Below the pieces are notes generated by a model. The model was not told where the DNA came from. It ran no database searches and saw only the letters and a list, made by a program, of their open reading frames with translations. Both the position numbers and the translations under genes were made by a program. A stretch of DNA of 64,000 nt from Fistulifera solaris (lineage: Eukaryota), in assembly GCA_030295235.1 (NCBI GenBank), contig AP026126.1:62001-126000 (forward strand). Direction: 5' to 3'. Position 1 is the stretch's first letter; every line of letters starts with the position of its first letter. Positions 11,507 to 37,087 of this stretch are shown here, piece after piece.

Positions 11507-11960
11507 ACGAGAATGGCAGAAAATGTACATGATATGACAGTATGTGTCGAACGAGAGATTGAAGCATGTACAACGACGCCGACGATTATTAGAGACCGTT
11601 TGCAATGAATTTGTATACTTCGAATGAAGATTCATCGATGAGTAGCCACAAATCACTATCCTATTCTGCGATGCACATGGTAAAATGCAACGACGTCTTT
11701 AGTGAATTAAAAGGATGCCTCTTTTTGGTCTGGAGAAGTAGTGAGTAGTTACTTTACAATTACAATATCTTATTCGCATCGGCCTACTTCAACGTTTTTC
11801 TCCTTACTGCTTAGCGATTTTCTAGGCTCACGAAGATCACTATGTATACTGCGTTTAGGATGATACTATGACAGAAGAAACAATCTTCACAAATAGCTGG
11901 TGATTACATTTACAGATGCGCTTCACAATAATAGACAAAAATGGCGGTGCCGAAGTATTT

Positions 11961-14901
11961 CTATTCGCTTCGCACTTCGACGCCGTATATTTGTCCTTTC
12001 TCCTTATACAGTACAGAGACCACTTGATCAGCGAGGAAAACAAATCCTTCGCGCTCAATGACATACTTTTTCCGCCGCTTGGCCGCTTTCAAGAGCTCCA
12101 GACCGAAGGCCTCCGCTTCCAAGCGACCACTGAGACTCAAATGGGCATGATTCGATTCAAACTTGCCCGTTCCGAGCTTTCGCACCGTCGGTTTGTTGCG
12201 CGCCATTTTTGTGATGCTGGCATCACCGACTTTGATCGTCGATGTGGTCGTGCACACGCAACTAGGATCCATATCTTCTACACCATAGTTATCCGCGGCA
12301 TCATAGTTGACGGTGTATCCCATGTCTTCCAAGGAAGCCACGGTCATTCTTGACAGCACAACTTTACCCCCTTCGTAGCCCGTCATGGATTCTTTTTTTG
12401 AAACATGTCTTATCCGTGAAGCCACAGCCTTCGAGTGGAATGGGCTTGTCGCACCCAGTCAGCTTCTGGTACTCGGCAGTGGCTTTCGAGGATGCAGTAT
12501 ACGAGCACGACGAGAAGGGAGTCTCCTTGACTAATCCATTTTTCTTCCACAGGGCACCGATTCCATACTGAAAGGCAAACAACAAATTAGATATCATTAG
12601 CTTGCACCAAGCAAAACACACAGCCAAAACACTTACAATTCGACCCATTTCGTGCGTCTGCGTTGGATAAAGAAAGCGACGTTTCGGATGAGATAGGGAT
12701 GTTGTCAAAAGTCAGAGTGGGCGTTTCGGTATTCTTATACTTACAATAACAGACTCGAGCATTGACGAGTCAGCCAAATCATCAATATCGGCACTATCAA
12801 GAGTCATGCTTCCAATCACAGGAATAATTTTACTACCGACCCTTGCCCCATACTCTGCTTGTGAATAGCCCAACACTCCGCTGATAGCATCGATATCGCC
12901 CACCGTTGCGCAGATAAAAATGTCGTCGATCGTGTCAGGCAAACTTTTGCATGTCACACCATCTCGTGTATCGTCGGTAACGGAAAGACCAGGCATATCT
13001 CCAACAATAATGGATCCCCATCGATCGGCAGCCACCACAAATGCATCTTGATACGTCTCATCTACATTGGATAAATCAAGGGTTGTCTCAAAACCGGCTT
13101 CCCTCAAATTACCATCATCGGCAGAAGGTTCACTTGATGGAACCTGGCTTGGAAATACGGTAGGAATGATGGATGGAAATTCCGAAGGCGCAATACTTGG
13201 GCTGAATGTTGCAGTGGGTACAGCAGTAGGAACTACGGTGGTGGTGGGTTCGGCAGAAACACTAGGACTCTGAGTGTCAGCTGATGGTGCCGCACTTATA
13301 CTTAAGCTCGGACTTTCGGTCGCGGCACTTGGACTCTGCGTATCAGTGCTTGGACTCGGTGTTGAGCTCGGGCTTTGGGTGTCAGCGCTAGGACTCTGTG
13401 TACCGATACTAGGAGCTGCAGTGGGAGCGGAAGTCGTTGTTTCAGCCTCGGTAGGGGCGGGACTGGAAGTTTCGATTATCTGAGATGAGGGGGGCGCTGA
13501 CACCAACGTAGACGGTGCAAAAGTCCGCGCGACGGATGGAAGCGTAGACGGAGAGATTACCGAAGGACTTGCTGACACACTGGGAGACGTCGTTGGGCTC
13601 AGTGATATTGACGGACCTGGTGTTTCAGTTGAAATTGCGGTTGGGCTTAGTGAAGGCGCCGGTGAAGCACTCTTCTTCGAAGACTTTTTGCTTGATTTGC
13701 TTGATTTACTCGACTGGCTCTTTTGACCTTTTCCACTTTTCTTGCCCTTGCCTGACTTGTCGCTTTTTTCGCCTTTGCCCTCGCTATTTGAATCGCCCTT
13801 ACCCTTTCCACTTTTTTCGCCTTTGCCTTTGCCGCTACTTTCACCTTTGCCGCTTTTCTTACTTTTAAACTCAGTTGTCGGATATGCTGTGCCTGTTGGC
13901 ATAGCTGAGCTAGTGGGCAGAAGGGTGGGCAAGAGAGTGGGGAAATCGGAGGGGTAGAGTCATCATCGTCATTTGAATCGCCCTTGCCCTTTCCGCTCTT
14001 CTTGCCTTTGGCCTTTGCGCTATTTTCACCTTTGCCACTTTTCTTACTTTTCAATTCAATCGACGTCGGGTATGCTGTGCCTGTTGGGATAGCTGAGCTA
14101 GTCGGCAAATAAGTGGGGTAGTCTGAGGGAGTGTCATCGCTGTCCCTTGAGTCGCCTTTGCCCTTGCCACTCTTCTTGCCTTTAGTCTTGGCACTATTTT
14201 CACTTTTGCCTTTGCCGCTTTTTCTTACTCTTCAATTCAATCGTCGTTGGGTATGCTGTGCCTGTTGGGATACCTGAGCTAGTCGGCAAATAAGTGGGGT
14301 AGTCTGAGGGAGTTTCATCGCTGTCACTTGAATCGCCCTTGCCCTTGCCACTCTTCTTGCCTTTTGCTTTTGCACTCGTTTCTCCTTTGCCGCTTTTCTT
14401 ACTCTTCAATTCAATCGTCGTCGGGTATGCTGTGCCTGTTGGGATACCTGAGCTAGTCGGCAAATAAGTGGGGTAGTCTGAGGGAGTTTCATCGCTGTCA
14501 CTTGAATCGCCCTTGCCCTTGCCACTCTTCTTGCCTTTTGCTTTTGCACTCGTTTCTCCTTTGCCGCTTTTCTTACTCTTCAATTCAATCGTCGTCGGGT
14601 ATGCGGTTGATGTTGGCATCGCTGATCCAGTCGGCAGATAAGTGGGTTCAAATGAATTCGTTGGCGAGGGAGTATCGTCGTCGTCGTGTGCTTCAGCGGC
14701 AGCAAGCTCTATGGCCGCTTTCACTTTCTCCGCAACTGTCTGCTGTAGATGGCGTTGTTGAATGAGCTGCTCGTGCGACGGCCTTGTCACCGACGATCGA
14801 CTCGTGCCTTCGATTCCAACATCTTGACTTAAGTCATATCCCCATGCAGCAGTGAAGGCAATCGTCGTCAGCACTAATATATTTTCGATTGAGCGAACCA
14901 T
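11961..14901 (-). CDS. Leishmanolysin-like (M8) protease paralog A, predicted catalytically inactive, with 58-aa tandem repeats and mucin stalk
   Basis: Signal peptide, K/S/G repeats, P/S/T stalk, AADRW..IIVGD and DDIFIC motifs. Introns 12744-12658 and 12636-12568 flank micro-exon THEMGRI. ESMTG Met-turn and conserved C-terminal VLY.E.G module present; several single-base frameshifts. Confidence 0.8.
13800..14650 (-). repeat. Coding tandem repeat, about 5 copies of a 174-bp (58-aa) unit
   Basis: CAATTCAATCG recurs at 14581, 14407, 14233 and 14052, with a degenerate copy near 13867; unit PTYLPTSSGIPTGTAYPTTIELKSKKSGKGETSAKAKGKKSGKGKGDSSDSDETPSDY. Confidence 0.9.
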
Positions 14902-15538
14902 GGTGGTTCTGACTTTAGCTGATTTAACCGTTTCGCGATATCAACCGGCAATGTAAAAGAACTCGTGAGTTTCAGATGTCTGAAGACAAGATGTTTTGAT
15001 TCAACGGCACGCTTTGAATCGTTTCTGTGTTATGGCCGGCTCTCCGATGGTCGTCTACAAGATCGATCAATTTGTGAAGGCGATTTTTTCATTTCAACGC
15101 ATCCGCGAAATTTTTTTTAGTACTACTACTTGACGGTATAGTCATTTCAACACTGCTGTTTTGATTTTTAAATGATGTTCCCGCATCTGACCACTGTGTA
15201 CCGGTAAGATTCGGAAACCACTAATGAATGTGGGGGTGGGATGCACATGCTAAGAGGTCTGAGGAGGAAAAATACCACCACTGCTCGTGCCACATAGCTA
15301 CTCATTCCAACTAACTAGCATCAAACAAAAGCTGAGAGGCTTTAAATTTATTGGGAATCTCTTCATGGCTTAAAGGAGTTTTCGAATTTCTTATGAATAA
15401 CAAGAGCAAGTTCCCTTACTTCACAAACGACGCTCTTCAATTATACAACGAACTATTTCGCAAGTGCGACCTCGGTCTGCGCTTATGATCCTATAACGAC
15501 AATGGAGTACGCTTTCGTTAGCGCGTATGGTCATGCCG

Positions 15539-17701
15539 TTATCTTGTCACCATGACTGTGTATTTGTAGCCATTTTCCATGTAAAGTACAATAATGATTT
15601 GATCACCAATATATTGATCAGCTTGCTCATCCTTGAGGTAGGCGTTCTTCCACTCGTGGTTTGCGTCCAAGATAGCCATTCCGTGGGCCCTAGCAATCCG
15701 CTGGCCTTCTTGGCTGAGCGGAGGTCTGAGACTAGAAGTACTGGTTGTGCTGGTGTGCGATATTGGAAGTTTACCCACGTTATGGTAGGTAAACACTTCA
15801 GGTATGTCACTCTCTGTAGTGCCTTGCAGTTCTCTCCGGTTACAAACACAGTCTGGGCTCATCTTGGACGTATCGAACGGATCCGCTCTCGAGTAGTCCA
15901 CAGTGTACCCAAGGTCGTCTAAGGCGGCGACAGTTAAAATGGATAATTCTAAGCCGTCTGTGCTAAATCCTGTCATGAGTTCACCCAAAAGCAATCTTCG
16001 TCCCAGTGCCCACACTGCGTTCCCGCGCCAAAATTATCTTCCACTGGTATAGAAGCATCGCATCCACTGAGCAATCGATATTGTTCGCTGGCTCGGGAGT
16101 CATAACTGTATGGACATGGAGAAGTTTGCGAAGCAAGATTGTTAACCGCCCACAAAGTGCCGAATCCATACTGAAAACAAAAGGAACTAGGTAAGAGATT
16201 ACCACGTTCATTGATTTGTAACGTTCGTGCTGCTGAAAACTTACCACATGCGCCATTTCGTGTAACTGCAAATCGGTTAGTAAAGGAATCATTGTGTTAG
16301 TGCGGCAGAAATCCATTGTATGACAAAACATTTGTCAACGTACAATCAGGCCTTCTAAAGTGCCAGCTTCAAGTTGTAAGTCCATGTCAGCCTCATCGAA
16401 ATTCATTCCGCCAACCGTAACTGTGATCGTATCGCCGAAGCGAGCAAGTTGAGGGCCTTCAAAAATGAAACAGAGTGTGAGTAGGGTCCATTCGAAGCCA
16501 AAGCAAGTCAAAACGTTTGACAAACCTGCTGTACCAAGCACTCCGAAAGGTCCATCAATAGGTATGATGGAGGCACAAATGAAGATATCGTCAATGACAT
16601 CAGGTAATGTCGAAGGATCGCAATTCAAACCGGGACTGTTCAATACGTCACTATCGACAACCAGGTCTGGCATATCCCCGACTATCACCGTGTCCCAGAT
16701 CCTCGCGGCGTCAATAAATGATGATTGAAATCGATCGGGGACTTGTTCAAGACCGAGTGTTGTATCGAATTCTGAAATTGGTACAGGTGTTGGTTCTGGG
16801 CTCGTGTTGTCCACAGAAGGAGGATCCGTGAGTGCTACTGAAGGTTCGGATGTTCCAGGTGGCGAAGGAGCGACGGTAGAAGTAGGTTCTAGGCTTGGCG
16901 CTGCCGTAATGGTTGGGAAGGAAGTTATCGTTGGTGCGGGACTGGTAGTGACTTCTTGAGAGGGAGCCCCGGTCACTGCTTGCGACGGTGCCGTTGTGTC
17001 TGTGGATGTCGGAGAAGTAGTTGCCGATGGTTCGGGCGTTGTAGGACTTGCTGTCGGACTTTCCGTGTCAATCGATGTGGGAGTAGCCGTGGAAGTTGGT
17101 TCGGCCGTCGTAGGACTTGCTGTTGGACTGGCGGTTGTTGGAGCTGTTGTCGTATCGGCTTGTGGAGTCGCAGTCGGTTCAGAAATAGCGGAGGGCGAAA
17201 CAGTTGGTGAAACGACTGGCGTCGGTACAGGAACTGGGGCTGGGACAACAACCGGACTCGGCACAGGAACATTGGGTGCTGCGACGGGCATTTCCGTCGA
17301 TATCGACACGATAGGACTAGGAGAATGCACAGTAGGAGCCGCAGTGGGTTCATCCACGGATTTTTTCGAGCTCTTTTACCGCTACCTTTACCCGATGATG
17401 GCATAGTGGGTGATGGTGATGCAGAGGCCGATCCTTTGCCTTTGGACGTTTTCTGACTTGTCGTTTTGGAAGTTGTTGGCGAACCTTTTCCGCCCTTGCC
17501 CGAACTTTCCGTTCCTTTCCCTCTTGTTGTTTTCTTACTTGTGGAGTCTGTTTTGGTCGATCCCTTCAAGTACATCAAGTCATTGACAACCTGAACGTTG
17601 AGGTTGCGATCAACACGAAGTGATTCTCGCACATGCCGGGCTTGTGCCGCGGAAAAGCTCGACACGGTCAAGAGAACTGATAACAATCGTTCGGCCTTCA
17701 T
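15539..17701 (-). CDS. Leishmanolysin-like (M8) zinc metalloprotease paralog B
   Basis: Signal peptide MKAERLL..., RNL, K/S/G segment, PT stalk; introns 16525-16457, 16343-16266, 16244-16171; micro-exon LHEMAHV; CGHWDE third His; ELMTG. Confidence 0.88.
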
Positions 17702-18150
17702 GTTTGCTATCTGGATCACAAGAACAAGATAGCTGTTCCAGAAGAAGGCGTGTGTTTTTGAATTTTACTTTGACTTGGGAATGTTGTGACGAGGTTTTTG
17801 TTTTGCGCCAAAAGTGATCCGTTACGGCCAAAAATTCGCCACAACGAAAACCGGTACTCGAAACTCGGCTAAATAGTACACAACCACTCGCGCTTACTCG
17901 CGCGCAATTCATCAACACGTGACCCAACAATGATAAGTGACACGTGACTGCAATGTTACGAAAGGTGTAAAATAGGGAATGCGCCCTAAAGGCTAGAGAG
18001 ACAGAATCATTTCTCAGTAAATCATTCGTAATGACTACGTTTTAGCTGCATTTTATGTTTGTCATTTGAGAAGTTGATCTCCAAGCAGCTACGATTGATT
18101 AGCAAAAACGAAAAAAACTATGAATTTATAGGTGATATCACGGCGTCAAA

Positions 18151-20289
18151 CTACCTCTTCACCATCACAGAGTATTTGTACCCATTTTCCATGTAAAGGA
18201 CAACAATGATCTGATCACCGACATAATGTTCCGCCAAATCGTCTCTCAGATACGCTTTTTTCCACTCATGGTTGGCATTTAAAATGGATAAGCCGTGCGC
18301 TCGTGCGATTCGATTTCCCTCTTCGCTGAGTGGCGGTTTGTGCGATCGTAGATGCGCGTCAGATGCCCATTGCGGAACGTTGCCAACATTTTGGTAAGAG
18401 AAAATGCCAGGGTCATGGCTACCTCTCAACTGTCTCCGATTGTTGCAGACGCAACTCGGACTCATCTGGGACGTATCAAAGGCAGTCGCTTTCGAGTAAT
18501 CGACTGTGTAGCCCAGGTCTTCTAAAGAAGCTATCGATAAAGTGGACAACTCCAAGCCATCGGAACTAGAACCTGTCATGAGTTCACCCAAGAAACAATT
18601 TTCATCCCAGTGCAAACATGCCGTTCCTGCACCAAATTCGTCTTCGACCGGGATGGGCGCGTCGCAGCCGCTGAGTTTTCGATATTCGTCGCTGGCACGA
18701 GAATCCGATTTGTATGGACATGGAGCTGTTCCCGCGGCAAGACCATTTAAATCCCACAATGTACCGAATCCATACTGGATATAAAGGAAAATTTGAGTGA
18801 GAAAACATTGTACGTCAAGGAATGAATTGGACAAGCTATTTGCAACTTACGACATGGGCCATTTCGTGCAGCTGACGATTTGTTGAAGCAGGTACAGAGT
18901 GTCAGAATCTTGGTTGAGAGCATTGCAATATGATAGCACTTCAAGGAACTTACAATCAAGCCTTGCAAAGTACCTTCTTCCCGCTGAAGATCCATATCAG
19001 CTTCATCGAAATTCATAAAGCCAATTGTAGAAGTAATCGTATCTTCAAAGCGGAAAAAAGTTGGCCCGGCTGTCCCCAGGATAGAGTTAGGCCCGTCTAT
19101 CGGCTGCACTGAAGCGCAAATGAAGATGTCGTCAATAACGTCTGGTAATGTCGTTGTATCGCAATTCATATTTGGGCTATTCATTACGGAAGCGTCAACC
19201 ACAAAGTCCGACATATCTCCAACGATGACGCTGTCCCATATTGCTGCGGAATTAACGAATGCTGATTTGAAGCGATCAGCTACTTTGTCTAGATTCAGAG
19301 TCGTCTCAAACGCTCCGGCGATGATTGGAGGAGGCACCACAGGGCGTGAAACGGGAGGAGCTACAGGACGAGGCACAGGCCACGGTACAGGAGGAGCTAC
19401 TGGTCGTGGAACAGGTCGCGGCACAGGGGGTGGCTTGGGGGACCGTGTTGGTGTTTCGATCGGGGAGAGAGTCGGAGGCACAGTTTCGGGTTGCGGAGCA
19501 GCCGTGGGAGATGCAGTTTGTTTTGCAGGAAAAGTCGGCATGCTCGTAGGCGAAGGCAGAGGACTGGGTGTTGTAACAGAAGAAGCCAGCGGGCTTGCTG
19601 TAATAACCGAAGATGCCAATGGGCTTGATGTAGATACTGGCGATGCCACTGGACTTGGCGTAGAAGATACACAATCCGTCTCAGGATAGTCTTTGCTCAT
19701 CTTTTTTGTTTTGCCCAAGTAATGATGGTCTTTGGAGGGTTGTTGCGTCGGCAATACTACAGGAGACGAGGATTTGCCTTTACCTTTTCCTTTTGAATGC
19801 GACTTGGACTTCTTTTTTGGTGAAGAAGTGGGCGATGTTGTCGGTTCGTCTACTTCCTCGAAACTCGGACAGTCTTTGGACTTTTTGGTCGTTGTTTTCT
19901 TCTTTTTATCCTTGTCCAATTCTTCTCGGCCTTCCAGTTTTTTTTGACTTCGAGCTTTTTTGTTTCGGTACCTTTCTGTTTTTACCCTTGCCCAATTCAT
20001 GACGATCATCAAGCTTCTTCGATTGCGACGTTGATTTTGGTGGGGATGATACAGGTTGAGTTGCGACCGGTGTCTGTGTTGGCACTCCAGTTGGCTGTGA
20101 GCTCGAGTCTTCATCTGACTTGAGTTCTTTATCGACCGAATGCGATTTGGATTTTTTCAGCCGCCTTCGGCGAACGGAATCGTTTTCTCCGCGTTGCACA
20201 GCATAGCCACTTCGTCTTGTGGCCCTGGCAGAAACCGACGACAAAGTCGTGAGGGCAGAAAGGATCAGTAGAGCGTTACCAGGTTTCAT
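18151..20289 (-). CDS. Leishmanolysin-like (M8) zinc metalloprotease paralog C
   Basis: Signal peptide MKPGNALL..., RRL, Lys-rich and PV/PR-rich stalk; LGTAGP; micro-exon LHEMAHV (18851-18871); CLHWDE; ELMTG. Confidence 0.88.
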
Positions 20290-20698
20290 CTTGGCGACGC
20301 TCCTGTTCGCATTGGCAATCGTTGCATGTGACGTTCGGTGCTCTTCTTGGTCAAAGATGAATAAGCCCGTGCTTTCAAAATGTGAAGGAAGGCGTTCCGT
20401 CACAAATATTCAAACCGCGCAACGGCATCCGATTTTGAACTGTACCGCATAATGTGTTACTTTTATAGCGGTGAGACACTTACAATTCTTGTTTGCTCGA
20501 GAGGCTGCATAAGGATATAGTACTATAAATTGTACAATAATAATATGTTTCCAGAAAAAAAGTTTTCAAGTCAAGTCCCGACTGAAAGAACATTTGATAG
20601 AAACGCCATTTCCAATTTAAACGATTGCAATGGAACAATGTTCATGAAAACAAATATCACTATTCTACGTATGCATTTTTAAACCTTTCACGCACGCT

Positions 20699-23134
20699 TT
20701 AGGTATCAGACCGAACAACGACGGACTTTACCCCATCATCCCAATACAACACAACAATTACCTTGTCACCTAAGTATACAGAGTTGCCGCCCAAAGCAGC
20801 TGCTCGAAACGATCGCAACTGGGAACGTCCATAATCGATCGCATTCAATCTTGCCGCCGTGGTGGTTTCTGTCTGTAATTGTCGTCGCTCGTTGAAGAAA
20901 ACACCCGCGTTCAAGTTGCGATTCACATTACAATTGCAACTGGGCGCCAACAGAGAAGACGGGTAAGGCGTAGCTTGACTGTAATCTACTGTGTAACCTA
21001 GATCCTCCAAACCCGCTACGGTGATGCGTGAGAGTTCTTGGCTACCTGTGTTGACACCCGTCATGAGTTCGGATTGAAAGCAATCTTCATCCCAATGCAA
21101 GCATTTCGTTCCTTCAGCTCCGTCAGTCTCAATGGGAACAGCTCCATCACAACCACTCAAGGCCCGATACTCTTCACTGGCCTTGGAATCATAGCGATAC
21201 GCACAAATGTCGGTGTTTTCCACCAAAGAGTTGGGTCCCCAAAGCGTACCAATACCGTACTGCAGAATGAATCAGATGTAATTACCGCCAAAGTGAGACA
21301 AACATGTTGCCACAGGAAATACATGAACTTGGAATTGAGGTTACTCACCACATGAGCCATCTCATGAAGCTGAACGAAGAGGGAGAACGATCAGTGAGTT
21401 AGGGTTACGGTTGTCAGACGTTTTATCCGCGCGTCAGTGTGCACCACAACTAGAGTTAGGGATTAAGACAGAAAATCTAGGGTCGAACTTACAATTGTTC
21501 CAGCAAGTTGACCATTTCCATTTAAAATATCAATGTCTGCCAAATCAAACTGCATATATCCCACAGACGTCTGCAAAATTTCTCCACTTCGAGCTGCGAA
21601 AAAACGAATAAGCATGAGTTTGGAGCTAAAAAAGGAGGAAAAATCGATCAAAAATTTTGCCGTTCAATACAACAAAACAAAGCCATCTCTTCATTTAAAA
21701 CAAACCTAAAAGTGGGCCTGCTGAACCGAGAATACCGACTTCCCCGTCGATACTGGGGAGGCTTGAACAAATGAACACATCATCGATAACATCAGGAATA
21801 GTGGATGTATCACAACGTGACCCTGCCGTAGCGCGGTCGGCATCGGTCATGACAAAGTCCTGTAGGTCACCCACAATGACTGTATCCCACCGCGAGGCGG
21901 CGTCGATAAACACTTGGCGATACGCTTCGGGCACTTGATCAAGATTGAGTTCGGTGGTAAAGCCTCCTTCGACACGAGCGAGAGTCGGAGCGCTTGTCGT
22001 AGTGGGACGCAAACTAGGGGGAACACTTGTCGTACTGTTGCTCGTGGGGAAAACGGAAGGAGATTCCGAAGTTGTCGGCGGCAAAGATCGGGAGGGCTGC
22101 ACTGATCCAAAAGGCTGAGCAGTTGACGAAGGTGCTCTCGATGCGGACGGCAGCGCGGTAATGGAAGGAGCTACCGACACGGAAGGTTTACTCGAAGCAA
22201 TAATGTTTGAACTCGGCACCAGAGAAGGCGCCAAGGATGACGAAGGCGAAATACTTGTCGGTACTTGCGAAAGCGTCGGATCCTCGCTTCCGGTTCCTGC
22301 TGACGTTGGTAATTGGCTCAAAGTCGGAGAAAAGCTCGAAGTCGGTGCACCGCTCAAAGCATTAGGCGCGAGTGACGGAGGAACTGAAGACGATGGGGGA
22401 ACTGTTTGAATCTGCGATGATGGAATCAAAGAAGGAGCGATTATGGTTCCAGTCGTAGGGAAAACAGTTGTTGTGGGTCCTTCAGTACCAGCAACCGGAG
22501 GAATTGTGGGCACACCACTCGGGGCCGGAGAAATCGTAGGAGCCGGCGAGACTGTAGGATTCACCGTGCGAGCAGCAAACACACTCAAAAATATTTCCGA
22601 ATAGGTTCCTTCGGGTTTGGGCACCCAACCTCCGGTATACGTTTCAAGGAAGTTTTTGGCTGTTTCTTTAACCTTCTCGGCCGTTACCGGCTGGGCTGTC
22701 TGTTTCTCCACGGGGGCGCGTGTCGGAGCCAGAGTCGTGTCTTCTACTTTCGACCCGACTTCTTCTTCTTCTTCTTTCTCTTCCTCTTTGCTTGCTGCGG
22801 GCTTTTCATTCGCAGGCTTTTCGTTTGCTGGTGACTCGCTCGTGCTCGGGTCACGTTCGCCCGTAAAGATGTTGGTGAAGAGATTAAAGTAGCTACGACC
22901 CGACTCAAATGACGAATCATCAATAACTTCTTCGGTTTTTGTTGTGTCATCCAAAAGCGATTGCAAGTTGAATACATTGAAAAGACGTCGATTGCGGATA
23001 GGTCCTTCCGAATCTCGTGCTGTTGGCACGCTCACATCGTTTCCTTCGCGATTTGTTGGCTTGTCAGCACGCAATAACTCTGCCGAGCTCGGTTGTAGCA
23101 AGAAAGGAAGTAAAAGACGTAGAAGAGGCTTCAT
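20699..23134 (-). CDS. Leishmanolysin-like (M8) zinc metalloprotease paralog D
   Basis: Signal peptide MKPLLRLL..., RRL, acidic segment and S/T/P stalk; intron 21705-21594; micro-exon LHEMAHV (21349-21369); CLHWDE; ELMTG. Confidence 0.88.
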
Positions 23135-23930
23135 GGTTATTAGGCTTGAATAGACTGCTTTCTTTCCATTCTTCTTTGCTACATCGTTGCATGGCGGAGG
23201 ATCCAGCGCAACACGTAAGAAAGATGAAACTGCGTTCAATACCGTTCAAGAAGAGAAGCTGACAAAACAGTCTGACTACCAGTTAACTGTATAGAAGCAA
23301 TGTGTACAGTGCGCAAGAAGCAGTGATAGTAAACACGTGACAAATTCGTAAGATCCAAGATACAAGGCCCTACGTCATATACTTTTCTGATATCAGGAAT
23401 GTGAGCTGTGATTTTTTTATTTAATGAAAAGAGATTTGTTTTCCGAATTCTTCATGTCACCGGCGCGTCAGCAGTGCTCTTCCCTACATTTTTCGTGCTA
23501 CTTTTCATTATGTCTTTTGGTCCCAATAATCTAAAAAATTCAATCGTGCATCTACAGTAGAGTCCAGAGTGTCCAGAGCAACGGTCATTTTCTTAGCCGT
23601 TCCAACTTCCAACAATACAAAGTATAATTACGACTACGATGAACGGAACCAAAAGTACACAGTACCAAGTAAACCTCATCCCTTGTGTGATGCTTGATGC
23701 GTAGCCTCCGTCCGGCGTCGCTTGAGGAGTCTTGCCTGGCAAATAAAATATGTGAAATGCAAAAGCATCATTGTGTTACCCCAACAAGGCGACATGACTC
23801 GAGAAACATCTAGCTTTTCTTATTGGCTGCTGAAAATTCACTTGGAATCGAATCATTTCCGCGGGCATTGAGTGGGGCAATATTGCAAGACTCTGCGAGA
23901 GTTGTCTGTAAACAAACATGGATGTACTTC

Positions 23931-24950
23931 TCAATGCGCACCATTCATAGATTCACAGAGCGTTTCTGTGTGATCTGACAATAGCAGAGCCAAAAACTGA
24001 AAGTTTATTGAACAGTTTCCTGTCAATACCGCTTCCAGTATAGCCGATCGCAACCATGTAGACTCCATGACCAAAATTGCCGATCCACTATAAACGTGGT
24101 TCAAAGCTTGTCGCTTCTGGATCCGTTTGTGTGCTTTTGATGTCAATGATTCACAACAAAAGTACGGTTGGGTGATAGCAAATGCTGCAGGCAGGCATAC
24201 GCAGGGTCTTTCTGACGCGGTTACTCGATCACCGTGAACAAACGAAGACTTCTGTGTTTTTTTTTCATAGCCTTCATGATAATCTTCCAGTGAGGGCCCC
24301 AATCCACAAACGATTCAAGTCGCTTAAATCCAAGCAAGTGAGTTTTGGATTGGCACGAATGACACCGATCAAGGCTCGGGCAACAGATGCAATACACTTG
24401 GTTTGATAGTCCACAGTTGATTGGTCATCCTCGATCCAGCAGGAAACAGACAAGCCCAATCGTTCAAATTGCTTGAATTTTGCTACTCGCTTCAAGAATG
24501 AGATGACCTCCATATCCAAATCCCAATAAATCTGGTCCTCGAAAATACCGTCCACTTTTTCTTTTGCCTTAAGATCTTTCGCCACTATTGGAGGGAACCG
24601 AAACGTTGGACCCAATGAGAATCCGTGTCTAACTCGTAGTCCAAAACACTAGTCTCGTTCAAGCTCTTGATCCAGGTTGGTAAGCTCGAGCTTTTCAAAA
24701 TGACATTGTAAAAGGGGTTCCATATTGGGGCGGCTGAAAAGTGAGATGTTCCTGCAAGACAGAGAAAAAAACGAACCAAAGAGGGGTCTTGTGTTTTCTC
24801 GAGCACATATACGAACGTGGCACCCTGATCGCGGAAGCCAAATATCATCGGGTGTAGAAAATTTTCACTGAGTTTCAGTTTCAAAGGAAAAGAGCGAGTC
24901 GCCAAGACGGTCTCCTGTTCTGGACTCCATTGATGCCATCAGCAACCAGT
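23931..24950 (-). pseudogene. Fragmented hypothetical gene with LRR-like segment, inserted in the protease array
   Basis: Three overlapping minus-strand ORF pieces (24905-24585, 24615-24274, 24302-23931) read as one protein (..IRANPKLTCLDLSD..; ..ALLLSDHTETLCE..); unrelated to the flanking proteases; several disruptions and no clear start. Confidence 0.45.
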
Positions 24951-25508
24951 AGGATAAATTATTCTTCCGGCAAGTGATGGTACTTCTTCAAGTCGCAGTT
25001 ATCAGATATAGACGTTCACAACAACTGAAGTGTGAAAATTGATCATACAGGAGAAAGGATAGCGCAGATAATGACACTCCAGTAACATTCTCTGCTGATA
25101 GCTCTGTCATGATTTTCGTTTAATGGCCAAATAGCCCCGCATAAATGCGTTTTTTTAAAAAAGAGACTTTCGAGGGGAAAAGGTCATTTCAAATTTTCGT
25201 TCTGGATGTTTTACATTACTTGGAAATTCGAAAACAATTTCCTTTTGACAACGCATCGCTTAGCAATAAAGGATTGCAACGCAATGCAACGCAAGATCTG
25301 GATACTCTTACATGAAACTCAAGCGTCTATCTTCATTGCGATCTCAATTTGTCGTGTACTTGTATTTGCTATGTAGTAATGTATTCAAAAGACAAAGTCG
25401 TAGACCAATTGACAATGAATAAAGAGGGGAAAGAAACAATGTGACTGACTTGGATGAAAAATCTCCATTATGCGGAGTAAGCAATAGCAACAAACAAAAA
25501 GACTTCAG

Positions 25509-28149
25509 TTACGACCAATCTGTCACCAACACAGATTGAACTCGATCGTTGTCCCAATACAATACGACAATCATCTTGTCTTCCAAATAAATTCGATTGA
25601 GATCTCGGCTGATCACGTTGGCGGATCGGGCCGATTTTAACTTGGCTCGTCCGTATTCGATGGCATTCTGTCGAGCCTCTTGACTGGCAGTAGATGGTCT
25701 TTGGACTCGAGTGACTTGATCCTTAAGACTTCGGGTGTTTTCCGCGTTGCAAACACAATTCGGTGACAAGAGATTGGCGGAAAAGGGTGTCGCTTGATTG
25801 TAATCGACTTGATAGCCCAAGTCCTCTAGGGCTGCAATGGAGATACGAGAAAGTTCGAGATCACCTGTGTTGACGCCCGTCATGAGTTCGGATTGAAAGC
25901 AATCTTCATCCCAATGCAAGCATTTTGTGCCCTTTTCTCCGTCTGTTTCAACGGGTACTGGACCATCACAGCCACTTAAAGCCCGATATTCTTCACTGGC
26001 ACGAGAATCATATTTGTACGGACACGAATCTGAATCTTCTGTCAATTTATTCTCGGACCACAAAGTTCCAATTCCGTACTGTGGATTGAGATGTATTGGT
26101 TAGAGAAACACGATTCCTGAGGTTCAGGCCACATTTTTGTTTCAGCGATTACTTACCACGTGGGCCATTTCGTGTAACTGATGATGCGAAACGCCAAAAC
26201 AAGAAACGATGGTTAGTATCCTGCGCAAGTCAATCAATTTTCTTTTTAACCTTTCTTCATGACAAACACACTTACAATAGTACCAGCCAGTTGCCCCTTC
26301 TGCTCCAGAATCTCAACGTCAGCAAGGTCGAACTGCATATATCCGACCGAGGTTTGCACAAAGTCGCCGAAGCGGGCAAAACTTGGCCCCGCTGATCCTA
26401 AAATGCCCCCCACATTATCAATCTCCGGGAGGGAGGCACAAATGTAAACGTCGTCCACTACTTGAGGTATTGATGCAGGATCACAACGAAGATCTGGAAT
26501 AGAAAGCTCTGCTTCGCGAACGACATAGTCCTCCAAGTCACCGACAATCACGCTATCCCATTTGGCAGCTGCGTCGATAAAGATTTGCCGATATCTCTCA
26601 GGCACTTCGTCCAGATTGAGGGCTGTTTCGAAAGATCCTTCTACCTCATTTTGTGTTGTAGCGGTTGTCGGTGCAGCACTGTTGGTCTGATTGGAGGGAG
26701 AAATAAGTGACGGCACTGCCGAAGGCGCATTGGAAAGGACAGGACTAGACGAAGAAGTATTATTGGGGACTGCAGACGGTGCATCTGATGCAGTAGAGCT
26801 AGAAGTTGGCGCTATAGTCCGATTCGTCGGCGTTGAATCATTTGTCGTTGGAATCACGGACGGCGGAGATGAAGCCGTAGAGTCAGTGGTGGGTGCCACA
26901 GTCTCATTACCTGGAGAGTTCACTGTGGGCACCACCGATGGCGACTCCGACAGACGAGTTTCAGTCGGTGCGGGCGTCCTTTCTTGGGTGGAAGCACCGG
27001 AAGGCGCAAAGCTTGGCTGCAATGAGTCCGTTGCCGCACCAATCGGTGCAGAACTTGGCAAACTCGTGTTTTCGATCGTAGGCGTATTTGATGGATGACC
27101 TGAAGGTGCTTGCGATTCTATAGTGCTCGGTCCTGCCGTTGGGTTCTGAGTAACTTCTCTGGGCGGAGAAGTCTGTGTTGTCGTTGGTGCGGCAGTAGGC
27201 ATAAGCCCAGAAGCTCTCGTTGGAGAGGCAGTTTGTGATATCGTGGGCTTCATCGAGGGTAAAACTGTTACTGAAGTCGTTGGCGCTCTCGTGGGCAATG
27301 CGGTACGAGAGCCAGCTGGTGCTTGAGTTACGTTTGGATTTCCTAAACTTGGAGCTCTTGTTGGTCCATCATCGACTTCGGAACTCGTCGGGGAAGCAAA
27401 AGGCCCGTCCGAAAGAATATCACTTTCATTAGCTGTCGGTGCAGGCGTTTTATTTCCACTGTCGGGCGACTTCGATGGAGAGAGACTACTAGCGGGTATC
27501 ACAGAAGGACTTTGGCTTGGAGCAGGAACATCCAAATCGTCTTCCGGTGACTTGTCATCTGAATCCTTATGCTTTTTCGACTTCTTAGAGTACTTTATTG
27601 ACGTTTTTGAGGAATCAACAGACAAAGACGACTTTGACTTTTTGGATTTCTTGGACTTCTTAGAGTCTTTCTTTGATTTCTTTCCACTCAATGATGAATC
27701 ATTGTCATCACTGTGATCCGCATTATTAGTATCGCTGTGATGCTCTTCTTCGTCTTCGGTATTTTCCCCTTCCCCTTGTTGACCTTTGCCTCCTCCTTTT
27801 CCTCACTGAAAATAGACTCCGTGTTGACGGACACTGAATGTGATATATGTGAATGTGATGCCTCTTTCGTAGTCGATCTCGCTGGCTCCGATTTCTTTCC
27901 GCTTTTCCTTCCTTTCGCAGATGGTACGTAGGGCTCAGATGGCGACGGTGAAGTCCCATCCGTTGAGATAGAAACAGCTATTTCTTCGTCATTTGCATCG
28001 TAAAAAGACGTCTCTTTACCTGACGATTTGTTTCTTGTCTGTTGCCGTAATCGTTGTCGTCGTTCGCTATTGTTAATTGTTTTTCCTGATGATAATACTA
28101 GTAGCAGAGAAAGAAAGATCAACGCCAATTCAGCTCTCCTCGACCGCAT
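25509..28149 (-). CDS. Leishmanolysin-like (M8) zinc metalloprotease paralog E
   Basis: Signal peptide MRSRRAELAL..., KKSK repeats, long PT/PS stalk; LGSAGP; micro-exon LHEMAHV (26157-26177); CLHWDE; ELMTG. Confidence 0.88.
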
Positions 28150-28629
28150 GATGATGTTATTTTCACTGCAACAATTTGATAGACAATTGTGACCGGAGAG
28201 CTTGATGAGAAATGAAATGGCAAAATGTGAGGAAGTTGGCCGTTTCAAAACGAAATTTTGGCGCGACCAGTGGAGCGGAAAATTCATTGTTTAGTGCACA
28301 GTGGACTATCTGCATTAATGTACAATGAGATGTTATTTTAGAATGGTTAAAACAGGATAAGGCGTTTCTTGATGTCACACCATTACAAGCACGAGCTAGG
28401 GTAATCAGTGTCATCATTCATCATCCACTCTGGCCTGAATCACTACTTAATTACTCAATACCTTGCATCTCTTCGTTGTGGTCACAATGCCCGACGTCAT
28501 TCAACTTTCTCTGAAACCATATGATAAGACCTATCTTGTTTTTTTTACCTTGTTGTTTTCCAACGAAACCTTTCACGTATCAGAGGCAAAGGAGGAACAC
28601 GTGGAAGATTGAAGGCTCGCTTTCTCCTT

Positions 28630-30782
28630 TCAAGGATCTGGTGTGACTAAGACAGACTGAATGCGCTCATTTTTGTCAAAGTAGAGTACGAGGACAACTT
28701 TGTCTGCCAAAAATATCCTTCGCGGATCGGTGTTCCTCGACATGTGCTCCGCCGAGCGGTGATTATCTTGAAGTTTCTTTTTTCCGTATTGAATGGCCTG
28801 CTCGCGCTCTTTATCACTCGCATCATAACGAAGGGAGCGACGATTATCTTGCCAATGAAAGCTCATTGATACACCATTGGAAAGTTGGAAATCGTTTTCG
28901 TGGACTTGATTGGCGCCGCAGACACAACTCGGGTCCATTTGATCCACAGAATAGGGATCCGCCTGGCTGTAGTCCACTACGTATCCCATATCCTCTAACG
29001 TTGCGATTGAAAGACGAGACAACTCTTGATCGCCTGTGTTGACGCCCGTCATCAGCTCGGTTTGAAAACAGCTTTCAGCCCAATGCAAGCACGCCGTACC
29101 CGCACCGCCGGTCGTTTCAATAGGTACGGCTGTATCACAGCCACTCAGAGCACGATATTCCTCGCTGGCTTTTGAATCATACGAATACGGACAATCGGGA
29201 GTGTCGGTGACCAATCCATTTTGTCCCCAGAGAGTTCCTGTGCCGTACTATATTTCGTTTTAAACCGTTAGAGACGACGAGGACAAGTGAGCAATGTCAG
29301 ATTTTAAAACACAACTCACCACGTGTGCCATTTCATGCAACTGTCAAAAAGACAAAGAGCAGAGGGAGACTGAGTAGAAAATCTGGGTCAACTTATCACG
29401 CAAGGGGTTGTACTTACGATAAGACCGTCTAATCGACCTTGCGTCTCCAGCATTTCAATATCCGCGAGATCGAATTCCATATAACCCACCGCTGTTTGAA
29501 CAAAATCTCCCACTCTTCCAAAGATAGGGCCGGCTGAACCAAGGATAGAGTTAACACCGTCAATGTTTGGAAGTCTTGCGCAAATGAAGACATCGTCGAC
29601 AATTTCGGGCAAGCTATTACCGTCACAAAGGAGCTCTGGATTGGTTCGATCTTCTTCAAAAATTGGATAGTCTTCTAGATCACCGACAATGATGCTATCC
29701 CATTTGGCCGCAGCATTTTGAAAGACACGATGATACTGAGGAGGCACTTGATCCAAATTGAGCGTCGTTTCAAAATCTTCGGTGGGCAAAGCAGCAGGAA
29801 CGGCCGTAGGAGCTTCAGCCGCGGTTGTCGGGGGATTCGTTGAAGATGAAGTTGCAGCAGTAGGAGTACTCGTGCGAGATTCATCCAATGCAGTAGGTAG
29901 ATCTGTTGAGGACGCGATCGCAGCAGTTGGAACGCTCGATAAAGATGTTTCAAGTGAAGTTGGCGCACTTGTTGAAGACGGGCCCAACGGAGTAGGTGCA
30001 GCTGTCGCATCAGTGTTGGAAACAGTCGGTGCACTTGTCGAAGAGACGTCTACAGGAGTTGGTAAAGTTGTCGAAGCTGAATCAAGAGGCGTCGGTGCAC
30101 TCGTCGAGGGGTCGTCTACAGGAGTAGGTGCATTTGTCAAAACTGGATTGGAAACAGTCGGTGCACTCGTCGAGGAGTCGTCTACGAGAGTAGGTGGAGT
30201 TGTCGAAGCTGGATCGAGAAGCGTCGGCGTACTCGTTGGAGCTTGTTGCGTTTCCATTGTCGGACGTGATGTAGGAGCATCTGTAGATGACGTTGGAGGT
30301 GCTGCAGGTGCTAAAGTCGTTGCAGGAACTCGTGTAGGAACCGCATTTTCCATTACAGGAGCCAGAACAGGAGTTTGGATCGGAGCTGTTTCTTCTGTAA
30401 CAGGTGATAATGTGGGCGCAGGACTTAATGTCTCTTTGCTACTGCTTTTCTTGGATTTCTTTTTTCCTTTCCCTTTCCCCTTGGATTTCGAGGAGGAGTA
30501 TTTGCTCCCCTTTCCTTTGCTGCCTTTTCCTCCTTTCCCTTTCGACTTTTTGCTACTAGATGACTTTCCTGCTGCCGTTGTTTTCGTACTGCTATGGGTC
30601 ATATCATGATGCATGGCCGGCGGAGTAATCGAAAGAATATATTCATGCTCCTGGTCATCGAAATTGCCATACGGTGTCGTGGCCTGCAAAGAGCGTTTTC
30701 TTACATGATGAGTTTCACTAGGATGGCGTGTGCTGGCCCATGTGGCTGTCACGAGCAGCGACAAAATTGAGATGGATTTCAT
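28630..30782 (-). CDS. Leishmanolysin-like (M8) zinc metalloprotease paralog F
   Basis: Signal peptide MKSISIL..., RSL, KGKG/KSSK block, STSAPT repeats; LGSAGP; micro-exon LHEMAHV (29320-29340); CLHWAE; ELMTG. Confidence 0.9.
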
Positions 30783-31118
30783 TTGAACCTGACTTGTATG
30801 AACGTGTTTCTTTTATTGCCGTTATCATTGTCTGCTTTCAATGGTAGGCGTTTGAAATGGGTCGAAAAAGTGAACGGTGCGTTTACTGCAAAATTCGAGG
30901 CGTGGCCGGCGTGCTTCAATGTCAGTCGCGCGCGGGTCTACGTTTCTGTCATCCTGAACCTTAATCAGTATACCAACTTTTATGGCAGCCGCAGAAAAAC
31001 TTCGTACCGATGCCTACTTTTTCTGCTATACAGCAGCCAACGAAAAGGATCGCTGGCTTCTTGAATATTCTTCAGTACCTTAACAACAAAAGCAAATACA
31101 TTCCTTCCTTTTGTCAAC

Positions 31119-32615: not shown

Positions 32616-34688
32616 CTAATCACCCTGAATTTCGACGGAAAAGATTTCACCGCCTTCGAGGTACAAAATAATGACGGCCTGATCTCCTACATATCTCGCT
32701 GCTAGTTCGGGCGGTAGTTTCGCTTTCAGTTCTTTGTTTTGTAGAAGTAGCTTCTTACCATAATCGAGTGCGATTTGACGACCTTCTTGGCTTAACTTTC
32801 GACTTCGGGTGCCTCGAGTTATCACGTTGGTGTGATTACTTATTAGGTTTTGATCCGAAGGATGGCGTCGAGTTGTCAATTTTTCCTGGCCGGCATCTGC
32901 ACTTCCTCGCTCTACCTTTTCTACTGACTCTTCCGAGGGAACACTGAACAAAGTCGAAACAGAAAATGCTCCAATCTTGAGTACGTTGGATGTACTGCCC
33001 GGTCCTTTCTCCTCGGGTTGATCCTTCGTTTCGTCATCTTTTTCCTGAAGACTGCTGCTGCAAACACAACTTGGGGCCAAATCCGCTGCAGTGTATGGAT
33101 CCGCCGCATCATAGTCTACTACATAACCCATGTCCTCTAGTGATGCCACGGTGATGCGCGATAATGGTAAAGATCCAGTGGAAAAGCCCGTCATGAGTTC
33201 GTCCAACAGACAGTCCTCTTCCCAATGCCCGCATTGCGTACCCGGACCTCCGTCGAATTCAATAGGAACAGCCACACCCGCACATCCACTAATAGCTTGG
33301 AATTCCGCAGACGCCTTTGTGTTGCCATTGTAAGGACACGGGGGAGTCGCAGTGTCCGCCTGAGCACTCGTTTGCAAATTGTTCAGCGTCCACAGAGTAC
33401 CAAGCCCTAGTACGTGACCCATCTCATGGAGCTGTTAAAAAATATCAAGGAGTAAGATTCGTTAGATTCATACACACTTTTGGAGATAATCGAGGAGGAA
33501 AGTTTACGTACGATAACACTTGGCAGAGTGCCGCCCGCTTGGAGCGCTTCCACATCCGCCGAATCGAAACGCATAGCCCCAATGTAAGGAATCGTTGTCG
33601 GCGTAAACCTGGCAAATTCCGGGCCCGCAGATCCCAGTACACCATCGATTCCATCTATACTTTCGACTTTTGCGCAAATGAAGAGATCATCGATTTCGGC
33701 CGGCACCAGAGTACCACAAGAACTTTCGGTGGTCCCCTCGATCGCCGCCAAGTCTCCTATGATCACTTGCGACCAGCGGTCGGCTGCCAACGTAAACACT
33801 TCACGACTTTCCTCGGGTACCTCCGATAAATCCAAGGTAATATCAAATCGGTCCGTTGTGGGCATGATAGTACCAGGACTTGTCGGTAAGATGGTGGACG
33901 ACGGCGGTGCTTCGACGGGTGACATGACCGGAGCTGTGACGGGCGACCCGACTGGAGTTGGTGATATCGGCGCCGGGGCCACGGGAGATGGTACAGGTAC
34001 ATTATCTGGCTCATCGGAAGGAACAATAATGGTAGAGGTGACGGTGGAGCGAAACGCAGGGACCTCTTGCACGTAGTCCTCGACGTACTCTAGCAAGTCC
34101 ACTTTGTCGTCCATAAAGGGGATAATTCTGTCGTTAAAACCTTTGCGGAAACTTTCTTTTCAAAATTGACATGTGCTGTTAAATTGAGCACGTAATTGAA
34201 ACTCCCATGAGCTTGCGAATAAACAATGTCATCCACAAAGGTTAGCTTCACCGAACGAAAGGATTCTTGAAACAGGACATTATCCATGAAAGCGTCTCCG
34301 TAAAAATCTTCCGTAAGACATAACAGGTCGATCACATCATTTAATGGCGGTCTTTCTTTCAAATTTGGTACCATGTAGCCAATCAAGAAGGGTTCGATGG
34401 TGACAGTCCGAACAGGGCCGCCTTGTTTCTTCTTGCCACTCTTTTGCCACTGTTTGATGACTTGAAGGATGATTTTGATTTCTTCGCGTTTGCTTTGACG
34501 CGAAGACCCCCCGCTGTTGACCTTGGTTCTTCTTTACCATTTTGTTTGATCATAACAGTAGCGTTCTTTTGCTTCACAAACAGTTCATCTTGAAAGACAA
34601 GTCGAGCCCCTGTGGCATCTGCCCCTTTCCTACAACATATCGATGCTAAGCAGCAATACAACAACGCTACTTCCCTTCGTCTCAGCAT
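32616..34688 (-). CDS. Leishmanolysin-like (M8) zinc metalloprotease paralog G (extra N-terminal globular domain; no micro-exon)
   Basis: Signal peptide, KKSKSSFKSS, about 110-aa non-repetitive domain, PV stalk; intron 33511-33432 followed by continuous LHEMGHVLGLG; CGHWEE; ELMTG; frameshifts near 34420 and 34120. Confidence 0.85.
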
Positions 34689-35298: not shown

Positions 35299-37087
35299 TT
35301 AACCACGGACTTCAACACCATACAAATGGCCTTCTTCTTCATACAGGACCACCACAATGCGGTCACCGACGTACAGGACGGAATCGTTTTCTTGCACTAT
35401 GCTCTTTCGCTTGATCTTGCGTTCCAAAAGCAACATTTCACCGTATTCGAAGGCCTTGGTGCGGCCAACGTCACTCAACTTTCGTCGGCGGCCGCCTCCC
35501 AGTTGGTTGGTTCCAGTGACCGCAGGACGTGTCGTGATCGTCGCGTTGTTGCTTTTGAACGAATCTTTGCCTTGTAACGCCGCTTCCAGATTACTACATT
35601 GGCAGGTTGGACTCAAATCGGCGGCTGTAAATGGATCCGCAGCAGAGTAGTCCACTTCATATCCCATGTCTTCCATAGAACCAATCGTGACACGCGAAAT
35701 CGGCATGGCTCCCGAAGAAAAGCCTGTCATTAGTTCATCTACGAAACATTCATCGGACCAGTGACTGCATTGTGTACCAGAACCTCCAGTTTGTTCCATG
35801 GGAACCGCTGAAGTGCATCCACTGAGTGTTTGCCATTCAGCATTCGCCTTGGAAGATTCTGAGTAAGAGCATGGTGGGTTGGCACTATTGGTAAAGCCGT
35901 TGATTTCCCAAAGAGTTCCGAAACCGAGAACGTGTCCCATTTCGTGAAGCTGGAGATTGGAGAGCGAAGAAAAAATTTGAGTGTCGCTGAGGTATTAAAA
36001 CTATGTATGGCTCGCTGATGACGAACTTACAATCACCGAAGAAAATGTTCCTTCTGCCTTCAATAGCTCAATATCATCGAGGTCAAACGTCATTTGACCG
36101 ATAGTTGTCGTAAAAGGTTTGGTATCTTGACGTACATACTGTGAAAAAGGTGGGAAAAAGTGAGCGTCGCTTGAAAATCCATATTTTCTTTAACCCCAAG
36201 ATTTATTTACCTCCGGGCCGGCTGAACCGAGCACTCCGCCAACCCCATCATTGGGCTGCAAACTAGCGCAAAGGAAGATATCGTCGATCACTGGAGGCAA
36301 ATTTGGACAGTTCTCACTAACCAGACCAGTGGTATCAACGTCGACAAGGTCACCTACGATCACTTCCTCCCAGCGATTCGCTGCGTCTTCAAATGCCGGT
36401 CGACAGTCCTCAGGAACCGCTGTGAGATCTAACGAAATTCCAAAGTCGATTGCCGTAGGAGTGGCGGTACTTGTTGGGGGCGAGGTCGATGTTGGAATTG
36501 CGGTAACGATCGGTTCGACTGGAGGGGATGTTGCTGTCGGCACTACCGTTGAAGGAGCCGGAGAAGGAACTTCCGTTTCCTCTTCACAGACATCGTCTTT
36601 CTTCTTGCTACCCTTACCGCTACCTTTACCGCTTCCTTTGCCACTAGAGCTGCCACTGTCGCCCTTTCCAGCTTTGCCTGCTTTGCCGCTACTAGCTTTT
36701 CCACCCTTGCCGCTCTTGCTGCTCGGACATTTCTTTCCTTTTCCTTTACCCTTGCCGCTTTTGGAACCTTTACTGCTCTTCTTGCCTTTCCCTTTGCCCG
36801 TTGTTGGACTGAAAGTAAGCGTTGGAGCTAGCGTTGCAGCTGTAGGAAATGCGGTTGCTGTTGGAACGGCCGATGCGGTTGGGTACATACTTTCTAAATC
36901 TTGACTCGAAGACTTTTTTTGACTTGTGCGCGGCCGTTTTGAAGTTGGCACTGGGTAGGACCTCATAGTCTGACAGTTTTGCTCCTCCTCCCCTTCCTCT
37001 TACGTGACTGGTTTCAGCGGCCAAGGAGGACGCGACGAAAGAACATATTGCTAGTGTTGCCGTGGAAGTGCTGATGCGCCCTCGCAT
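35299..37087 (-). CDS. Leishmanolysin-like (M8) zinc metalloprotease paralog H (no micro-exon)
   Basis: Signal peptide, strongly silaffin-like SGKG/KAGK block, PT stalk; introns 36210-36139 and 36030-35950; LHEMGHVLGFG; CSHWSD; ELMTG. Confidence 0.88.

Follow-up and report, generated by a model that had tools for sequence, protein, structure and literature searches.

Can seven codons that carry the catalytic motif of a protease form an exon of their own and, if so, is this exon a splicing switch? The question is raised by a tandem array of zinc metalloprotease genes in the diatom Fistulifera solaris, contained in a stretch of 64,000 nucleotides (nt) from contig AP026126.1 (GenBank assembly GCA_030295235.1, positions 62,001 to 126,000 of the forward strand); this whole stretch is hereafter called the window, and all coordinates refer to it. 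In metzincins, the HExxH motif provides two zinc ligands and the catalytic Glu. An earlier inspection of the letters and open reading frames (ORFs) of this DNA (hereafter, the sequence-only reading) had placed the motif, in six paralogs denoted A to F, on a separate 21-nt exon between two phase-0 introns, and had suggested that in-frame skipping of this exon could act as an on/off switch between an enzyme and a full-length protein devoid of protease activity. The analysis described here shows that the exon exists. It is highly probable that the locus is a tandem array of peptidase family M8 genes in which the motif of A to F lies on a coding-constrained, spliced-in and constitutive micro-exon that is a product of intron gain or loss, not of regulation.

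All six 21-nt segments were recovered on the minus strand exactly where they had been predicted, namely, at 12637..12657 (A), 16245..16265 (B), 18851..18871 (C), 21349..21369 (D), 26157..26177 (E) and 29320..29340 (F). Micro-exons are commonly defined as exons of up to ~27-30 nt, and the segments of A to F combine a length of 21 nt with canonical splice sites on both sides: a CAG acceptor in 6/6 cases and a donor in 6/6 cases, GTAAGT in A, B, C and E, and GTGAGT in D and F. The encoded heptapeptide is THEMGRI in A and LHEMAHV in B, C, D, E and F. In each gene, the upstream exon ends with a complete Ile codon followed by GTA(A/C)G, and the exon behind the micro-exon opens with a Tyr codon (YGxGxLW); thus, both introns flanking the micro-exons are phase 0. 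The upstream introns measure 87 nt in A (12658..12744, GTAAGT..CAG), 78 nt in B (16266..16343, GTACGT..CAG), 82 nt in C (18872..18953), 123 nt in D (21370..21492), 98 nt in E (26178..26275) and 77 nt in F (29341..29417). The downstream introns measure 69 nt in A (12568..12636), 74 nt in B (16171..16244), 76 nt in C (18775..18850), 89 nt in D (21260..21348, GTGAGT..CAG), 78 nt in E (26079..26156) and 72 nt in F (29248..29319, GTGAGT..TAG). The pattern of AG, a 21-nt segment of the HEMG type and GTRAGT is matched 6 times in the window, compared with 0.00 matches expected from 100 dinucleotide-preserving shuffles. Furthermore, 7 of the 21 nucleotide positions vary among the micro-exons of B to F, and every change is synonymous, which points to selection on the encoded heptapeptide as coding sequence.

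Transcript data were available as assembled contigs from four sequencing runs of one study (X1-X4), aligned to positions 11900-30900 of the window. The share of sampled words found was 0.92 for X1, and 0.21, 0.19 and 0.12 for X2, X3 and X4, respectively. The X1 contigs covered all 30 bins and contained no joints skipping GT..AG introns, whereas those of X2-X4 covered 12-14 bins and contained joints at which the skipped parts end in CT..AC on the plus strand, that is, in GT..AG on the minus strand. Because GT..AG joints are present in X2-X4 and lacking in the fully covered X1, X2-X4 were taken as complementary DNA (cDNA). These joints, written here as the two window positions brought together, fall precisely at the predicted splice sites; the coordinates, boundaries and phases of the exon model were right. 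In A, the joint 12567>12637 was found in X2, X3 and X4 and the joint 12657>12745 in X3; a single X3 contig spans the last exon, the 21 nt and the upstream exon, and the X2 and X4 contigs terminate in 15 loose letters that correspond to the start of the micro-exon. In B, 16 letters stand between 16171 and 16340 in X3 record 19 and, together with 1 + 4 letters absorbed into the aligned flanks (with one mismatch), make up the whole 21 nt; the same record also removes a further intron, 16456-16524. In D, the joint 21369>21493 was found in X4, along with a loose end of 8 letters at 21349, identical to the beginning of the last exon, and a further intron, 21594-21705, is likewise spliced out in the contigs. 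In F, both joints, 29247>29320 and 29340>29418, are present in one X2 contig. The contigs, together with the sequence, therefore delimit both introns of A, B and F and the upstream intron of D, the sequence and the X4 loose end delimit the downstream intron of D, and the introns of C and E are those read from the genomic letters.

Every spliced contig that reaches the site of a micro-exon contains it, in three runs for A and in one run each for B, D and F. None of the joints listed for the X2-X4 contigs leads from an upstream exon directly to a last exon, bypassing the micro-exon, although rare variants lie beyond the reach of contigs. Because contigs drop rare variants and cannot be used for quantification, inclusion is demonstrated but the absence of skipping is not; that the micro-exon is constitutive is inferred from the absence of a listed skipping joint. 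Presence in mature messenger RNA is documented by the spliced contigs for A, B, D and F, and by a public protein model for C. The micro-exon of E is a prediction from the DNA, based on consensus splice sites and on differences from B, C, D and F that are only synonymous.

The public model in question is P0151, the 1324-residue hypothetical protein FisN_11Lh317 of F. solaris (UniRef name Leishmanolysin-like peptidase; PF01457), which is 100% identical to the last exon of C. In this protein, C is followed by B (window 15539-20289), and both halves contain ..GLILHEMAHVYGFG..; the C micro-exon, which lies outside the contig cover, is read in P0151 within GLILHEMAHVYGFGTLWDLNG. FisN_11Lh317 is a fusion of C and B via a short spurious linker. 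The worry that gene predictors would miss the exon and leave these genes misannotated is refuted for B and C, because the public model already includes the heptapeptide twice and is named leishmanolysin-like. A second public model, P0155 (FisN_11Lh309), represents a further paralog, G, and splices out the one intron that this gene has. For A, D, E, F and the remaining paralog, H, the database searches returned no spliced public model but only unspliced ORF fragments with 91-97% identity (P0268, P0271 and P0273), which are plausibly homeologous copies.

Read from the window letters, A and B each show a frameshift in the last exon. Both shifts are due to errors of one base in the window, a surplus base in A and a missing base in B: the four runs, whether DNA or cDNA, agree in lacking the base at 12393 and in having an additional base behind 15986. 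The corrected B reading is that of the public protein P0151, which has GHWDEDCFLGELMTG at this place. Ten more single-base insertion or deletion differences between the window and all covering runs were found between 13950 and 28539, with three further ones beyond those listed. As a separate observation, the X3 and X4 contigs differ from the window at ~20 positions in the last exon of D (20759-21050), and X1 contigs show some of these variants; they may reflect transcription of a homeologous or allelic copy.

A tblastn search of the window with pieces of B showed that the tandem array comprises eight paralogs, all on the minus strand. The six genes of the sequence-only reading are those that carry the micro-exon, but the array has two more members, G (~32616-34688) and H (~35299-37100). 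In both, a phase-0 intron is present upstream at the position seen in A to F (..VI/LHEM.., the slash marking the intron), and there is no downstream intron. The last exon of G (32616..33431; public model P0155, PF01457) has LHEMGHV fused to LGLGTLW.. and is preceded by an intron of 80 nt (33432..33511) that is spliced in P0155. The last exon of H (35299..35949) has LHEMGHV fused to LGFGTLW.., behind an intron of 81 nt (35950..36030) read from the sequence at the same position as in A to F and G. Behind ..AGP.., within the N-terminal half of the catalytic domain, B (16456-16524), D (21594-21705) and H (~36100-36210) have one more intron, which is absent in C, E, F and G; the spliced contigs back this intron in B and D. 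Intron content thus clearly differs among the paralogs.

An introner-like or recent repeat-borne insertion of the introns was considered and rejected. The 16 window introns that were compared share only common words of 8-14 nt, which is the chance level, and each matches only itself in the window; since the introns have no similarity to one another, nothing suggests that they came from a repeat.

What kind of proteins does the array encode? The last exons of H and G score 42.8 bits (E 3.9e-11) and 27.3 bits, respectively, against the Pfam family PF01457 (Peptidase_M8, leishmanolysin; cut-off 21), and PF01457 is precomputed for P0151 (B and C) and P0155 (G); the exon-1 pieces of B, C and H alone matched no Pfam family. 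HExxH, with its two zinc-ligand His and the catalytic Glu, is present in B to F (LHEMAHV) and in G and H (LHEMGHV), but not in A. In an alignment of the last exons of C to H, the third zinc-ligand His (H55) and the Met of the Met-turn (M66) are invariant; in B, the corresponding segments are GHWDEDCF and, beyond the window frame error, GELMTG. A profile of 36 relatives matches the leishmanolysin structure 1lml_A with E 2.5e-12, and HExxH, the third His and the Met-turn fall on their counterparts (..SHI..DELM..) in the alignment, whereas a search of the PDB with the single sequence P0155 gave 0 matches. The catalytic role that had been assigned to HExxH fits the PF01457 matches and this alignment.

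G is the sole paralog that was modelled (P0155, same alignment), and in its AlphaFold model the predicted local distance difference test score (pLDDT) of the catalytic domain is mostly >90. A Foldseek search with the model returned 1lml as the only match at E<=0.001 (E 8.2e-8, prob 1.00), followed by catalytic domains of matrix metalloproteinases with E 8.5e-3 or weaker. The active-site helix of the model comprises residues 389-400, of which LHEMGHV is 394-400 (pLDDT >90). By this model, the micro-exon accounts for the final seven of the 12 residues of this core helix, its zinc-binding half, with the upstream junction inside the helix and the downstream junction at its end. The array genes are accordingly predicted, from sequence profiles and the model, to encode leishmanolysin-like (MEROPS M8/PF01457) zinc metalloproteases. 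Signal-peptide-like N-termini were found wherever the N-terminus is readable (B, C, D, F and G), followed by Lys/Gly/Ser-rich and Pro/Thr/Ser-rich low-complexity stretches; F, for instance, starts with an ATG at ~30782 and MKSISILSLLV... Leishmanolysin is listed among the secretome families enriched in the diatom Nitzschia putrida in a published study (PMC9054022). The last exons lie at 11961..12567 (A), 15539..16170 (B), 18151..18774 (C, from YGFGTLW to the stop codon, with the third His and the Met-turn), 20699..21259 (D), 25509..26078 (E) and 28630..29247 (F), all on the minus strand.

Paralog A departs from the other members. The sequence-only reading had attributed HExxH to all six paralogs, but A has HEMGR, with the second His of the motif replaced by Arg (HExxR), and its third-His position is occupied by Phe (..CGFTDKTCF.., compared with ..C(L/G)HWDE(D/N)CF..), with the Met-turn retained (ESMTG). 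Because two of the three zinc ligands are lost, A is most likely inactive and is probably a dead protease, or pseudoprotease. A is nevertheless transcribed, being represented in contigs of all three cDNA-like runs with the micro-exon spliced in. In the N-terminal region of A, we also observed a 174-nt tandem repeat (13968-14646; 3.9 copies, 90% matches) that encodes a 58-residue unit rich in Lys/Gly/Ser and Pro/Thr. An X1 contig joins 14171 to 13819, which suggests a different repeat copy number in the X1 data.

To place these gene structures in the context of the family, we classified 362 related database proteins by the sequence ahead of xGxGxx(W/F). In 210 of these, HxxxHx directly precedes xGxGxx(W/F), and 36 begin inside the motif. 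Another 56 carry non-homologous sequence ahead of xGxGxxW, and 16 of these 56 have Q, the translation of a CAG acceptor, at position -1. The remaining 60 could not be classified, 56 for want of a motif match and 4 because there was too little upstream sequence. Homologous upstream sequence joined to xGxGxxW without the heptapeptide was found in 0 of the 362 related database proteins. Two read-through ORFs of other organisms, P0028 and P0063, read Q/LHEMGH(V/I)/VS..Q/LGIG, so that the 21-nt exon with a phase-0 intron on either side recurs there.

Related metagenome loci displayed a broader range of structures. In L009-L013, a 21-nt segment bounded by cag and gtaagt lies at the same place (~2350-2370 in L009) and encodes EHLTLLA, without HExxH; these loci are a second degenerate copy that keeps the micro-exon. 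As A and L009-L013 are seemingly inactive and yet keep the seven-residue segment, this segment would be structurally needed, and inactive members of the family appear to arise by substitution, not by exon loss. L004 and L006 share the G/H structure. Two relatives without the upstream intron have introns elsewhere: in L007 (~41-150), a phase-1 intron interrupts the Gly codon that follows HEMAHVI, and in L016 (~298-410), a phase-2 intron splits the second His codon. In high-GC, bacterial-looking metagenome loci, the motif region is contiguous. Overall, the upstream intron is common to all eight paralogs and several relatives, and the downstream intron is found in A to F and some relatives, but not in G and H. 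The architecture thus recurs in related sequences, probably from diatoms, and with at least 4 intron positions within ~10 codons of the motif, the M8 family bears on the question of intron gain and loss.

A peculiar arrangement was observed in L001 (2203-2500; identical in L002 and L003), where CTGCACGAGATGGCTCACA lies between ..tag and gtaagt.., followed ~100 nt later by TT between cag and gtaagt, and then by ATGGGGATTGGA behind ..tag. The frame (LHEMAH-I-MGIGTLW) would be restored only if the 19-nt and the 2-nt pieces were both spliced in.

How could such an exon arise and be maintained? Two short phase-0 introns (69-123 nt) lying 21 nt apart isolate the C-terminal seven residues of the active-site helix. 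Intron definition is established for short-intron eukaryotes in general and, because the introns of the array are short, the splice sites are probably paired across each intron here as well. Under intron definition, a 21-nt exon would present no recognition problem and would need no special regulator. Given that the upstream intron is present in all eight paralogs and the downstream intron is variable, the micro-exon would be no regulatory device but an incidental result of introns gained or lost around a conserved motif.

Several points weigh against this explanation. X2-X4 are not on record as RNA, their cDNA status having been deduced from the joints. Furthermore, they are contigs of three small runs, in which minor isoforms are dropped and nothing is quantified, and they do not reach the micro-exon of C or E, which has no bearing on the expression of these genes. 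A tree of the last-exon region built with a quick method from 35 rows (paralogs and relatives) left 17 of 32 inner branches open, recovered only the pairs B+C and D+E, and placed P0024 and P0161 badly; due to this poor resolution, it offers no choice between intron gain in A to F and intron loss in G and H. Finally, exon skipping does exist in a diatom: in a Phaeodactylum time course, it is reported for 1099 genes (PMC5859163). On account of this last point, we leave a slim chance to a regulated cassette, in which conditional in-frame skipping would remove HExxH and leave a full-length but catalytically dead isoform that serves as a structural, adhesive or decoy protein. Being 21 nt long and phase 0/0, the exon could be skipped without loss of frame, and minor or condition-specific isoforms would be beyond the reach of contigs; however, frame preservation is necessary for a switch and is not evidence of one. 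The three cDNA-like runs contain no skipping joint but do contain inclusion joints for four paralogs (A, B, D and F), and 0 of the 362 relatives have the skipped junction, so that the proposed on/off switch found no counterpart in the data. The consensus splice sites, with (C/T)AG acceptors and GTRAGT donors in 6/6 cases, are unlike those of a weak cassette exon, and deletion of the C-terminal 7 residues of the modelled 12-residue core helix would probably disrupt folding. Moreover, the degenerate copies A and L009-L013 keep the 21-nt exon, their activity having apparently been lost by substitution, and in G, H and many relatives the motif is fused to the last exon, so that such a switch is impossible there. 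We consider it barely credible that skipping under unsampled conditions (nutrient stress, life-cycle stage) turns several secreted M8 proteases into dead decoys or adhesins and that the architecture has been retained across diatom lineages for this reason.

Low-level skipping or intron retention could also occur as functionless splicing noise, with the products degraded or misfolded. Such noise is usual spliceosome behaviour, rare forms would be invisible to contigs and, because the 69-nt downstream intron of A is a multiple of three and stop-free on read-through, an in-frame retention product is possible. However, no such forms are among the contigs; this account is unlikely as an explanation in its own right, although it is compatible with a constitutive micro-exon and differs from it in degree only. 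Virtually no credence can be given to the idea that the 21-nt segments are not exons but chance ORFs within one long intron, or pseudogene remnants. The frameshifts that A and B show in their last exons when read from the window letters and the degenerate motif of A could be taken in its favour, but the segments are present in spliced contigs, which refutes it, as well as in a public protein model; furthermore, the variation among paralogs is synonymous only, and all four runs correct both frameshifts. A constitutive micro-exon generated by intron gain or loss thus remains our preferred explanation of the array.

Other genes in the window include a bacterial-type RecA gene (PF00154, E 5e-122) on the plus strand between F and G (31068-32348), presumably a nuclear gene for an organellar RecA. 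At 264-5173, also on the plus strand, serial ORF domains (pyruvate:ferredoxin oxidoreductase, 4Fe-4S, TPP-binding, flavodoxin, FAD-binding and NAD-binding) have the layout of a pyruvate:NADP+ oxidoreductase-type fusion, and a GFAT-like gene (GATase and SIS domains) lies on the minus strand at 7790-9748.

In the literature searched, supplements being outside the search, we found no description of the HExxH micro-exon reported here. The array provides a tidy case in which a catalytic motif has a 21-nt exon to itself and a useful test for micro-exon-aware gene prediction in diatoms; no new regulatory mechanism is revealed, the switch idea being without support so far. In practical terms, the array counts eight genes, two of which are fused in one public model, and single-base insertion or deletion errors of the window mimic frameshifts.

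The closest known system is leishmanolysin/GP63 (M8, PF01457, 1LML). The HExxH helix, the third His ~60 residues downstream and the Met-turn (..ELM..) align between the two, 1LML leads the fold matches and is alone in reaching significance, the Pfam scores are above the gathering threshold, and the diatom proteins have signal-peptide-like N-termini. Nevertheless, identity to 1LML is only ~19% over 247 aligned columns, and the diatom proteins have a C-terminal domain of their own, as well as long N-terminal regions of low complexity. To our knowledge, the Leishmania GP63 genes are intronless, whereas the motif of diatom A to F is on its own exon. Bacterial leishmanolysin-related zinc metalloendopeptidases (Planctomycetota, Gemmatimonadota and Methylobacterium) share the ..(I/L)xHEMGHVLGIGTxW.. 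core and the third-His/Met-turn region, but are encoded by contiguous intronless ORFs and frequently carry attached pre-peptidase C-terminal, Calx-beta or RTX domains. Pseudoproteases, such as iRhoms, are catalytically inactive protease homologues. Similarly, A (HEMGR, Phe for the third His) and L009-L013 (EHLTLLA) keep the fold-encoding sequence and have lost zinc ligands; the difference is that the inactivity of the diatom copies is a prediction from their sequences and that these copies have no assigned function. Animal micro-exons of 3-27 nt, for example, those of the neuronal SRRM4-dependent programme, are subject to alternative inclusion and act mostly on surface loops and interaction sites, which they modulate; we know of no micro-exon regulator in diatoms. 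Like the animal exons, the diatom exon is very short, frame-preserving, bounded by canonical splice sites and conserved across species, but it has been seen only included, and it encodes part of a core catalytic helix. In sum, it is a real, conserved and apparently constitutive micro-exon, one more instance of a familiar kind.

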